Notes: generated from the sequence alone by a model not told the origin. Shown: positions 3,101-12,100, counted from the stretch's first letter. The stretch is 53,816 bases of DNA from Catajapyx aquilonaris (GCA_000934665.2 JYFJ02002616.1:1-53816); one strand, 5' to 3'. Numbers and translations are program-made.

Positions 3101-6100
3101 ACATCTCCAGATTGTCATAAGGATATCCTCATTTATGTGGAAGGACAGGACTACACCTTACAGCAGGATGAAAGTGGAGAAATAGGCTTTTATCGAGGCA
3201 CTCGCCCCATGCCTATCCCCATTCAGGTAGATGGAATGGTGGTGGAGAAGGTGGGAGGCTTCATTGTCATCAAAGCAGAAGGGCTGGGATTTACCGTGGG
3301 TTGGGACAGCAAAGATGTTGTCTTGGTGGAAGTGTCAGATTCTCTATGGAATCGTACAGCAGGACTTTGTGGAAGGTTGGATGGATGGTGGGAAAATGAC
3401 TGGGAAATGAAAGATGGGCAGAGGAGCAAGGATTTGCTGCCATTCGTCAACAGCTGGGTTGTTGATCAGGTTGGATGTGAGTATTACCAACATTGCTTGA
3501 CACTTTGAATGTGAGTGTATTATAATTTATACAATGCTCTGAGAACATTGTAAATTTTGCATGAAATGCATAATAATTTTATCCAAACAACTTTATTCAA
3601 TACTTTTTTTCCAAATGGGAATAAGCTGACAGATGCAGATGTCGATTTTAATATCTTGAAATAATCGAGGGAGATGTTGAATGAAGTTTTGAAAACGTTT
3701 GTTTACTGCCTCGGTTGAATTGAGAGTGATGTCTTTTGCAGCTACTTGCAATGACAACGCTGAGGAATCACTGGTATGTGCTGGCAAGTCTAGAAATGTT
3801 GAGACAGAAGCCGTAACCTTTTGCCAGCGCCTGCTAACCCACCCCAGTTTTGAGCCATGTCGAGAGGTGGTTAACCCACTTCCCTACGTGGAGGTTTGTA
3901 AGGCAGATTTTTGCAACTGTGCTGGAGGATCCGAGGGCAAGGGTTGTGCTTGCCATTCTGTCAATGCCTACGTCGTGGAATGCCAAGAGAGAGGAGCAAC
4001 TACCAGTGGAGTCTGGAGGGACAGGGACTTCTGCCGTGAGTACCAATGTTGATAAAAGTGACAGCAGTCGAACTTTTTAGGATAAAATTAGTGCAGGATC
4101 TTTTCTGAATATCAGGAGGGGTGAAAGACATCACCCTCTATTCACTAAACTGTACATAGCTCATGTAACGTTCCAAAGTGTAAATCATTTTTCATGTGCA
4201 TAAAATGTATTTAATTTTTTTCCCTTTTTAACCATGTTTTTCACCCAAGTGCCTCTTTTAATTTTCAGCTATGGAGTGCCCAGGAACAATGGAATACCAA
4301 TTGTGTGGATCAGGAATCCAGGAGACATGCGGTGCCCCCATTGAAGCTGAATCTGATCAGCAGGAAGCAACCAACGGCATACCCTTTTGCCTGGAGGGTT
4401 GTTTCTGCCCTAAGGGAAGCATCTTGCATGATGGGAAATGCCTCACTAGAGACAAATGTCCATGTGAACTACGTGGGGAGACATTCCAGCCTGGCGACAG
4501 CGTGCCTAATGACTGCAATACTTGGTAATTACATAGCTCAATGAATCATAAGTTTAGTAATAATATGTGATTGTTCAGACTCTAAAGTTCAGCTGAAGCA
4601 ATATTTTACATTTTGTGGCGGGTTCCTTACTTTTGTTGTGATACCTGTAGTAATTTGCAATTACTCAAGCGGATTGGTCAATGAAAATCCCTTGACATTT
4701 GTTTCCAGTGTGTGTGAGGCAGGAAAGTGGACATGCACTGATGCCCGCTGTGGTGCTCGTTGCTCTGCAGTTGGTGATCCTCATTACACCACCTTTGATG
4801 GGAAGAAGTATGACTTCATGGGAAAATGTTCATACTACTTAGTGAAAGGGAATGGATTTAGTGTTGAAGCGGAGAATGTTGCATGTTCTGGAGCCATTTC
4901 GGAGGTAAGAGAGAAAACATCCTTGCTTGAGTCTCATAGGGTATGGACTTTATTAACATAAACATCACACCAGAATTCCGCGACACATTTTATGAAGTCT
5001 GAGACAGACTGTAGAATTGTATTGGTCTGTTGCTAGGTGTCCATTTATGGGCATCTTCTATGAACTTCAAAAGTGAAAAACATGTGAAATATTTTTCACA
5101 TCACATTTTAAATGCAGATGCTAGCCTGGAACAAATACTGTTTCCTTCAACGAGGGAAATCACTTGATATCCTCCAGAATCTATAAGTCCAGTATCCACT
5201 GTCTTTACAAGATTGTAAATGATGCAATAATTGACAGTGGATACTTGCCTTCAGGGGTTTTTTTTTGCTCATGCATTGATGCATTCCAACCAGTCAGTTC
5301 CATGTTTAAAAATAGCTGTTGACATTTTTCTGTTACATAACCAGAATTATCAAAATATTGTGTAAGTATCTTCAAAAATGAGTATAAAAATTGCAAAACA
5401 TTCTGAGTACGTTCTCATGCCATACCAGTGTGAGAGAAAAACAAATTTACAGCAGCTTATCAAGTTGACATTTGTGTGATCTCGTTTGATCCACATAGAA
5501 ATTTATTTTGGCAAAAAAAAAAGTATATATTATAGGTTGTCCTCATTGCAAGTATGTTATTTGATGCATACCCATGTTTCAGAGCTAATTTACGTAGAAA
5601 GAATTTTTCATAATGATGGATACTGTTGCCACGAACAATTCGTGACCTTTTATTTTATAACATGGATTTAATTGGAAGTATGCTCTTAATAAGTTACTGG
5701 CTTACAAAGAATATGTCACATCCGATACGTTTTAAAAATTCTTGCTGGGCATCTTATAATTGCAAACTGAATACCCTCTTAAAAAGTGATGTGTTAGGGT
5801 TAGTCTTGATTACTAAACGTGATTGTGGACCGACCTCTCGGACTTCACACCGTTGATTATTATGGCCAATATCAACTGGAGTTGACTTTTTTAGTATCCT
5901 CCTCCACAATCTGGGTGATCGCAACAATGGTGGGACATTCTTCCTGTATGCCATCCATTGCCTCTTCTTGCAACCAGATATGGGGTCTCTCCATGTCGAA
6001 CTTACTGTTAAAGTGAATCCAGCTTTGAATAGCTCATGCTCCATGGGGAATGGCATGGATTCATCCACTTGAAAAGTTATCTCGCTGTCGATGTGTGGGG

Positions 6101-9100: not shown

Positions 9101-12100
9101 AAGGGGAAAATGTTCCCACATCCGCCCTCATAATTAAAACTGTGTCGAAAATTTTCCCATTTTTTTGTGTGTACCCCCCCCCCCCCTTCAAATCTCACTA
9201 TTCGAGAAACACCTAGTGCCTGGTTATCATTTGTTGTTTACTTCTACGTAATTAAATCCCCCGCGAGCTGAAATTATTTTTTTATCTAGCTTTTCTTCTC
9301 GCTGTCGTGTTTAGAACTCGCGTGGCCTACATTGCGATGGGAAAATCCCTTAAGACAGGTGTGATGGAAGATTAAGAAAGAGGGGGGTATCCAGGTGGAA
9401 GATTCGACGAATTATGAAAAAAAAGGGTCGAGTTTTATATTCTTTTTGCAAATAATATGGCGGATATGACGAGGACTCGTGCAACATTATGGTGAATACT
9501 ATATGCCTTGACCTCGAGAGAGTGACCGCTGGCCAACCGTTGCCACCAAGTGATGCTTTATTTGCATTAGCGTATATTAGACGGCCTTGAGCCTAATTGC
9601 AACTGTAGGATGACTAAACAGCCTGGGGGTCACACCTTTATTTTTAAATTAGAGGTCGCTCGAACGCACCTGACTTTTCACATTTGCGAAAGTGATCCTG
9701 GCAATTTTCCTTTGTTGAGCCGATTTGCTTCACGGATGGGGGACTTCAAACAAGGCGTTGAAGAAACTGTGGCTATCAAAATGTAGACTGCCACGTAATA
9801 CTATGACAACTATAAAATATTTTTGCTTGGTTGGTCATAAAAGTCTTTAATATTATTAACGGTATTAGGAATTATGCCCTTTCACTGACCATGAACATGT
9901 ACGAATGAAATGTACACAAAGGAGTAACCTTGCGGAAAATTCTATGTAAAGGATAGGTAACCAGTTGTCCGGCAAGTTCGCAACATTATATAATCAGTTC
10001 CCACATTAGCCTTGTCCACGGACATAAAAAGAGCTCTAATAATTCCCCTTTGTTGGAAATTGCAACATTATTACAGGCTTGTTTTTGGGTCAGAGCGGAT
10101 TAGGAGGAGGAATTCCGGATTTTCATATCTCCGACGTAAAATCATGATTAAGGATGGGAATCGACATGTGAATTACAGTCACTATGTAGAGCACCACGAA
10201 ACGGTGTCACACATGTGGTTAGCAATGCATCTGATATATTGTGCTAAAAATTTTGCGTAGGTACTTATGACGTCCAAACGCACCAGGCGGTCTATACATT
10301 GTCAGGTTATATTGTCAGTCCTGACATCAATTATTATTATATGAGCCAGTTGTAACTTCCGGATCCAACAAAAAAAACCGGTTATTAATCCTCCACTGTC
10401 GCAATTCTATGAGAGACATCCCACGGGATCGTTTTGCTCTCTATAAACTTACCCGACTTCTTCATGAAGGAATTGAGCAGACTTCCTTTAGGACTCTTCC
10501 TCAATGTCTCCTTCCGAACTTTGTGCTGCACAGGTCCAACAGACAGCACCATCCAGTTCGAATCAGGCGAAGAAGTAGCCGAAGTGGCCGCCATGGTACC
10601 TAGCACTGAACTAACATCAGCAACGACGTGAAAGTGAAGAAGTCTCCGGGAGTCTCTCAAAATATTTTGTCACAGGGACGGTTTCACCACTGTTGGCGTG
10701 ACCACCAGCAACCTGGTTCTCACCAACACTTTTTTGAAGTAATGACTTGCACTTGGTTCCACAGCACCGGTCGCTTCGAGAGCCCGGTTGCGACTGAGCG
10801 AAACATTTTGCTGGGGTGTGGGCGTTGCAGGGAGGAAAAGAGGTGGTGGTGGTTGGATGGAGGGGTGGTCAACCCACACATATGCCCTTCCTGCACACAC
10901 TTTTGTTCTCCACACATGCAAGAAGAGGAGGTGCCCCGTCTCATGGGCTTGCGACTTGTGTATTGTTGTTGTTAGGACAGGTGACATGTCACGGTTATGG
11001 GGCAGAGATGGCCTATTCCTAGAGGAGATACGGTAATTGTATTGCGCGATGAGTTTCCTAATCAGTAAATCACGGTTGGACATGTCAAGGCTGCTGTCTT
11101 AAGAAGGAAAGATATTACAACATATTCGTACTTTTTTAAAGATATGTGGGAAGAAGCAAGTGGTCCCACCGGATGAAAACGAAAGTTGACCGCCGTGAGC
11201 CCCCTGGAGGCAGTCATAACCTGCATTTAAGCTGTCAACGAAAGCGAACTTCCGTTTATTTAATTTGATAGGAGGCAACTGTAAAAACAAAATTTTAAAA
11301 CCAGGCACAATTTTGAAGGTTGTAGCCCCCCCTCTTGTTGATGTTATAAGTGAAGGTTATTTTGGGGGTTTTACTGCTCGTTCCGAAGACAAACGCATGG
11401 CTACGTGCCTTGAATCACAACCCAGATGAGACCAGGGCAAAGTCCGTAGTATGATGAATTCAAATATGTAATTTTAAATTTTGAAATATTTAATTTAACC
11501 GCTATCATACCGTACTTAGCACTTCAATGTGTGTCGAAGTGGTATTACATTTTCGACAGAGTTTTAACACCGAGACAACGTGTCTGAATATACTGTATTA
11601 CCCAGATGGTAACTAGTTTGAGTACAATGCACGACCTTTTCAGCAACGAAGAATATAAAAATCGCATGTGAGTTGAGTGAAAGCGGGTAACTGCACAATT
11701 CTCGTTGAACTGGGGGTGCCTTGGATTTTAATGACAATCCATATAACCTCATTACTTGTCAAAATTACCATACAATGAATCATTACAGCATTGACGTCTG
11801 TACCTGATTAACTCACAGATTACGCGTCAAGGGTCGGTCGCTTAAGTAATCTCCGCCAATTAAATCCCGAATTCCAATGCGAGATCACGTGGCCGTGACC
11901 GCAAGCAGATGTAGTTCATGATTAGATTTGAACTTGTTTTTGGCACTAATAATCCAGTAGGCCTACGGAAAAAGACAATTGGGCAGATAACACCACGAAC
12001 TTGCGATTTTGTACCGGTACTATCAATTCAGCCATTTTTTTTGGTATTAAAAAAGTTCGCATGAGATTCCACATGTACTTATAAGAACAAAACCTGAGTT

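Follow-up and report, generated by a model that had tools for sequence, protein, structure and literature searches.

In the genome of Catajapyx aquilonaris, a stretch of 53,816 nt (GCA_000934665.2 JYFJ02002616.1:1-53816; hereafter the window, at its full length) carries on its plus strand a gene that is, judging from its domain architecture, hemocytin/hemolectin-like, and an intron of ~8.3 kb that divides a VWD domain of this host probably contains a second gene in antisense orientation. This nested gene is best read as expressed, spliced and protein-coding, and its product as a divergent protein of the BTB_2/KCTD (potassium channel tetramerisation domain) type with an orphan C-terminal half. 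The predicted protein has 445 aa, a mass of 49 kDa and a pI of ~10.2. Residues ~6-110 would form a strongly diverged BTB domain of the T1/KCTD type (BTB_2), split over exons 1-3, and residues ~111-250 a Ser/Arg-rich linker, probably disordered, with basic clusters resembling nuclear localisation signals. The last ~195 residues would make up a region without detectable relatives.

The gene model consists of four minus-strand pieces, running from 10594 to 5754, that join via GT..AG sites with phases 1, 0 and 2 (Table 1). The joined coding sequence of 1338 nt specifies 445 aa and a TAA stop, and has no internal stops. The start ATG (10594-10592) reads ACCATGG with its flanks. It is preceded, 25 codons 5', by an in-frame stop, and this open reading frame (ORF) holds no earlier ATG. 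An initial annotation, made from the sequence alone, had proposed this 4-exon model with the same start context, the same phases and a product of ~445 aa, and every coordinate of it could be verified in the sequence.

The nested position in a hemocytin VWD intron, also part of that annotation, is supported by the domains of the host. Pfam matches on the plus strand, from ~1300 to 34300, include VWD, C8, TIL, Mucin2_WxxW, F5_F8_type_C, CBM_14, VWC and EGF. One VWD domain is split between two of these matches (4761-4886 and 13215-13376), which places the host intron between ~4905 and ~13200. The 109 ORFs of at least 40 aa in this intron were compared with Pfam, and matches were obtained only for the two VWD pieces.

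Evidence for a spliced transcript comes from one public run (X1, of unrecorded kind) that carries the stretch, and whose contigs were compared with positions 4000-14000. Four contigs align with 0 mismatches, covering 5025-5535, 5539-5788, 5844-6092, and 6221-6342 joined to 6421-6781; their depth is low (1.4-5). The last of them, 483 nt long, joins 6421 to 6342 and omits exactly 78 nt, which are bounded by CT..AC on the plus strand and hence by GT..AG on the minus strand, and even on the shorter side of the exon 3/4 junction 122 letters match, again with 0 mismatches. The predicted junction 6421/6342 is thus seen in one contig, and the exactness of the excision at GT..AG argues for an RNA origin of the joined form. 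Contig 5844-6092 passes unspliced over a GTAAGT within exon 4 (near 6005), so this site is unused there. The AATAAA that the initial annotation had noted downstream of the stop is present at 5654-5649, but the contigs pass through this signal to 5025, and the 3' untranslated region (UTR) would therefore measure ~730 nt; the last covered base lies 19 nt past a CATAAA (5049-5044). Exons 1-2, positions 6782-6893 and the hemocytin exons within 4000-14000 are all free of X1 contigs, which is uninformative either way.

The composition of the DNA follows the predicted structure. The exons have a GC content of 0.50-0.57, compared with 0.39-0.41 for the introns and 0.33 for the 3' UTR, and the changes occur at the borders of the predicted exons. 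When an intron-sized region was simulated 2000 times with a first-order Markov model, 0.2% of the runs contained both an ORF of at least 202 codons and one of at least 161 (P ~0.002). With a codon-usage log-odds score trained on 2151 nt of DDX42 exons from the window, the frame of the model ranks above the five others in each of the four exons, and the per-codon values for exons 1-4 are 0.249, 0.025, 0.092 and 0.018. Hemocytin exons, which were not used in training, score between -0.11 and 0.25 per codon, intron pieces have a mean of about -0.42, and the value of exon 3 exceeds the 99th percentile of the intron pieces. Chance ORFs were considered as an explanation and rejected on the Markov simulation, the codon usage and the BTB_2 ranking of the window's ORFs given below. 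Scans for Rfam families and for tandem repeats returned no matches.

The core motifs of BTB_2 are an NVGG strand, FIDRDG and LNYLR..G.L..P, and the consensus of the profile used here shows the same three. This profile derives from a metagenome panel, in which a degenerate DNA pattern of the canonical KCTD motif found 120 loci, 77 with usable ORFs, 70 with a VGG-type start and 58 non-redundant. These 58 ORFs, all of which match Pfam BTB_2 (36.6-108 bits), were built into a custom hidden Markov model of 110 positions. Positions 9-85 of the profile align with residues 6-80 of the model, crossing the exon 1/2 junction. Scored separately, exon 1 reaches 13.1 bits and exon 2 reaches 7.9; joined, they reach 21.5 bits (P ~1e-8), and the full protein 17.2 bits (2.2e-7). 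When residues 1-122 were shuffled 20,000 times, no score rose above 6.9 bits. When the 690 window ORFs of at least 40 aa are ranked by this profile, the exon 1 ORF comes first (12.5 bits, E 0.0042) and the exon 2 ORF second (6.7 bits, E 0.28), followed by a third at 3.6 bits. Among 1155 candidates for joining to exon 1, exon 2 also scores highest, as none of the 1154 other 44-aa window pieces attains 21.5 bits (top 19.3, median 12.5). The scores of the two halves add up, and in the right order, which supports the BTB_2 assignment and, independently, the belonging together of exons 1 and 2. The diverged KCTD/T1-type BTB domain recognised in the initial annotation is supported by this match, and its reading of an eroded FIDRDG also holds, in that TIGSDG stands where the profile consensus has FIDRDG. 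The BTB region has lost G, F and R from these motifs but retains its hydrophobic pattern together with the D-G and L..YL..G.L..P elements.

Single-sequence comparisons point in the same direction. At a threshold of E<=10, phmmer with residues 1-122 as the query retrieves 76 of the 77 BTB_2 ORFs, the best of them at 2.7e-6, and the top matches are proteins in which BTB_2 is combined with TLDc. In the PDB, exon 1 matches a single entry at E<=10, the Shaw K+ channel T1 domain (3kvt, E 1.7), and exon 2 matches none. A search with exon 1 among longer proteins gave 30 candidates, 0 of them at E<=10, and nothing of use for either exon 2 or exon 4 emerged from the ESM Atlas. The prediction of a three-chain complex from the peptides of exon 1, exon 2 and the N-terminal part of exon 3 scored 0.01 and counts neither way.

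The contigs span only 5025 to 6781 and are unlinked to exons 1-2, and exon 3 has in-frame ATG codons. The region might accordingly be divided into two units, with an X1 transcript that begins in or just upstream of exon 3 (a non-coding RNA, or the message of a shorter protein lacking the BTB) and with exons 1-2 as an unexpressed BTB relic. Such a division is quite unlikely, as exon 3 starts precisely at a good acceptor, its phase fits that left by exon 2, and the helical end of the BTB region carries on in the first residues of this exon. The GC step falls at 6893 and not further downstream, and no window ORF matches BTB_2 better than those of exon 1 and exon 2, both of which are coding-like in codon usage.

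Under the single-gene model, the linker (residues ~111-250) has a length of ~140 aa, contains 22% Ser and 10% Arg, and shows basic clusters at 111, 116 and 235. A match of exon 3 to TFIIF (E 0.16) was dropped, being confined to a low-complexity stretch. For exon 4 the initial annotation had proposed a likeness to the C-terminal domain of KCTD1/15 or to the H1 domain of KCTD8/12/16, and this found no support in Pfam, in the PDB, in a partial H1 profile or among 1.84 billion representative proteins. Neither exon 4 nor its core matches any Pfam family at E<=10, PF23110 (H1_KCTD8_12_16) included, which is present in the Pfam library and was seen matching panel loci. A phmmer search of the PDB with exon 4 yields no KCTD chain; KCTD1 (6S4L) and H1 structures (6G57, 6QZL, 6QB7, 6M8S) are listed in PMC8699099 as deposited there. 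A profile of the first half of H1, made from 5 panel loci, gives no score on the model. The outline of the protein does recall that of a KCTD12-like member as tabulated in PMC8699099, in that a BTB at the N-terminus is followed by a long disordered linker and then by ~100 aa of C-terminal region, and a GF.L.V.SS...W..Y pattern had been noted by eye in the initial annotation. A true member of the KCTD8/12/16 (T1-linker-H1) or KCTD1/15 clades, diverged past recognition by sequence, is nevertheless highly improbable, given the silence of PF23110 on exon 4 at E<=10, of the PDB, of the half-H1 profile and of the 1.84 billion representatives.

Other leads for the C-terminal region are faint. The sole matches of exon 4 among the representatives, two tandem-repeat proteins, were judged spurious on reading, and a single-sequence AlphaFold2 (AF2) prediction of exon 4 has a predicted local distance difference test score (pLDDT) of 30.2. 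The N-terminus of HINT2 resembles the last ~45 codons of exon 4 (window 5810-5940, minus strand; PDB E 0.015, 32-44 residues), and this stretch falls within the part of exon 4 whose codon usage is non-coding-like. An identity of the tail as a HIT/HINT domain was rejected, as a profile of 62 bacterial HinT ORFs gives 4.7 bits, a value matched by 10 of 20,000 shuffles, and the tail lacks the catalytic His triad (His-x-His-x-His-x-x); on the whole model the HIT profile scores 1.2 bits. Residues ~330-384 show a weak similarity to the DysF-type domain of TECPR1 (8p5p, E 0.32-0.47 over 66 columns), in which several Trp positions of 8p5p are occupied by I, S or F in the model, and Pfam gives no match. 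TLDc was tried because the nearest BTB matches come from BTB_2-TLDc proteins, and it was rejected too; a profile of the first ~63 TLDc positions gives no score, and Pfam TLD finds nothing on exon 4. It is possible, if doubtful, that the C-terminal ~195 residues are a new partner-binding module of a KCTD-type oligomer, confined to one arthropod lineage, with the last ~60 residues recruited from DNA that was formerly non-coding or derived from a pseudogene. The suggestion of such a recruitment stems from the HINT-like trace together with the non-coding-like codon usage.

Several points weigh against an expressed, protein-coding BTB_2 gene of this kind. The hallmarks of the domain are eroded, with LSVGP for the consensus LNVGG and TIGSDG for FIDRDG, and the match ends at position 85 of the 110 in the profile, before the last helices. 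The custom profile itself was made from sequences chosen by the canonical motif. Pfam BTB_2 (PF02214) finds nothing at E<=10 on single exons, and the stretch from exon 1 through intron 1 to exon 2, translated in a single frame with stops replaced by X, matches no Pfam family; the curated model, whose gathering score is 21.4 bits, was run on the single exons and this read-through stretch. A HMMER search with exon 4 (195 aa) finds no homologue among the 1.84 billion representatives, and the last ~61 codons of this exon (5757-5939) score -0.315 per codon, which is non-coding-like. Junctions 10453/8697 and 8564/6893, as well as exons 1-2, are without read support in the X1 contigs, and the kind of X1 is unrecorded, so that the joined form could conceivably stem from DNA, as a processed copy or a deletion allele. 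Finally, even the nearest relative represented in the protein collection is remote (best DDX42 identity, 84%).

Some of these points are also what a transcribed, decaying KCTD paralogue would show, that is, a BTB_2 duplicate trapped in the intron that is still spliced and open, is under relaxed constraint and has no function. The eroded core motifs, the silence of Pfam BTB_2 on single exons, the non-coding-like codon usage of the C-terminal tail, the low depth of the contigs (1.4-5) and the failure to find an exon 4 homologue are all consistent with it. Decay of this sort is unlikely all the same, for 445 codons run over four exons without a stop or a frame break, 6 of 6 splice signals are canonical, and by codon score exons 1-3 and most of exon 4 are on a par with real exons of the window.

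If the product is a divergent BTB_2/KCTD-type protein, its BTB domain would, by analogy with the family, drive homo-oligomerisation into a tetramer or pentamer (PMC8699099). The oligomer would then act as a multivalent scaffold or adaptor, presenting several copies of the linker and of the C-terminal region to partners. The protein may or may not be a substrate adaptor of CUL3; cluster 1 KCTDs are described in PMC8699099 as lacking CUL3 binding, and binding of CUL3 by the BTB domain is therefore not to be assumed here. The basic clusters in the predicted sequence suggest a nuclear location.

With nested intronic genes of arthropods the model shares the arrangement of a small gene on the opposite strand of a long intron in a large host gene, and by this comparison nothing is unusual here. 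A specialist would be surprised by neither feature, since antisense nested genes are common and so are divergent KCTDs. The gene is probably real, new and fairly ordinary, and probably restricted to a lineage or fast-evolving. It would add a real, spliced and expressed gene to a region that resembles a plain intron. It also illustrates how a BTB_2 domain split over short exons, with eroded hallmarks, evades a per-exon Pfam scan and is recovered by a purpose-built profile. Should the C-terminal ~195 residues truly be a new module, a KCTD scaffold would have been caught growing a new domain. Interest would grow only if this orphan half turned out to be a conserved domain that folds and binds partners, or if the gene, through its nested antisense position, were coupled to the expression of hemocytin in hemocytes.

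The KCTD family shares with the model the N-terminal BTB_2 domain (PF02214), which here is ~100 aa long and matches the 58-domain profile at 21.5 bits, and the presence of a variable part after the BTB, as described for KCTDs in PMC8699099. The model departs from the family in having eroded motifs, a match limited to 9-85 of 110 positions, single exons on which the Pfam model is silent, and a C-terminal part that matches no known KCTD C-terminal domain. The differences from KCTD8/12/16 are the H1 similarity, not found with PF23110, PDB phmmer or the partial H1 profile, and the linker, which here is ~140-190 aa and Ser/Arg-rich. As regards Kv channels, residues 13-38 in exon 1 correspond to residues 5-30 of the Shaw chain (3kvt), the first T1 strands, a match that is weak alone at E 1.7; the model lacks the transmembrane channel part. 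The closest single-sequence BTB matches of the 77 panel ORFs are BTB_2-TLDc proteins (L005, L114, L086, L107; E 2.7e-6 to 2.5e-5), whose TLDc part has no counterpart in the model by the partial TLDc profile or Pfam TLD.

In the panel itself, BTB_2 ORFs that run directly into TLDc are found at L004, L005, L011, L029, L085, L086, L107, L114 and L117; Pfam TLD is matched in 5 of 58 ORFs and a RASRDG-type motif occurs in 11 of 77. At a further locus (L099), BTB_2 is followed by Kelch repeats. Both architectures lie outside the classic KCTD set.

Table 1. Parts of the nested antisense gene and of the VWD domain of its host (positions in the window).
Feature	Position (strand)	Length	Signals	Content	GC
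Exon 1, coding part	10453..10594 (-)	142 nt (47 codons + 1 nt)	donor G|GTAAGT (10453/10452)	N-terminal half of BTB_2	
Intron 1	8698..10452 (-)	1755 nt	GTAAGT...CAG	predicted	0.414
Exon 2	8564..8697 (-)	134 nt	acceptor ttgttgcag| (8698/8697); donor A|GTAAGT (8564/8563)	C-terminal half of BTB_2 match, with TIGSDG	
Intron 2	6894..8563 (-)	1670 nt	GTAAGT...CAG	predicted	0.407
Exon 3	6421..6893 (-)	473 nt	acceptor ctctttcag| (6894/6893); donor T|GTAATC (6421/6420)	end of BTB region, then Ser/Arg-rich linker	
Intron 3	6343..6420 (-)	78 nt	GTAATC...TAG	skipped in X1 contig	
Exon 4, coding part	5754..6342 (-)	589 nt (195 codons + stop)	acceptor atctctag| (6343/6342); stop TAA 5756-5754	orphan C-terminal region	
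3' UTR, contig-covered part	5025..5753 (-)		AATAAA 5654-5649 and 5507-5502; CATAAA 5049-5044		0.33
Host exon end	4761..4904 (+)		donor GTAAGA at 4905, read from sequence	first VWD part (match 4761-4886, Pfam profile 1-46)	
Host VWD continuation	13215..13376 (+)			Pfam profile 49-102	

The remainder of the window provides a control and a few further observations. The DDX42 exons were mapped by tblastn, and a control exon of this gene matches arthropod proteins, its best identity of 84% indicating that the window belongs to an arthropod without a close relative in the protein collection. No papers on hemocytin combined with a nested gene were found in the literature. In intron 1 of the nested gene, at ~9143-9292 on the minus strand, a stretch interrupted by stops bears a weak likeness to the C-terminal part of uL2, a ribosomal protein (PDB E ~1.7-1.8), and may be the fragment of a decayed processed pseudogene; it is the sole PDB match of the exon 1-intron 1-exon 2 read-through.

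A second candidate for a nested gene lies in a 7.7-kb intron of the helicase gene DDX42 (~41670-49374), where a 514-codon ORF, rich in Thr, Ser and Pro and with repeats, runs antisense at 46243-47784 (-). This ORF has no convincing Pfam family and may be a mucin-like gene. The same intron holds the remnant of a mariner-type transposase (45012-45257, plus strand; Pfam Transposase_1, E 8.3e-8), and downstream of DDX42, at 51587-52252 on the minus strand, exons of a SWEET/MtN3_slv sugar transporter are found (Pfam E 1.8e-14 and 5.3e-8).

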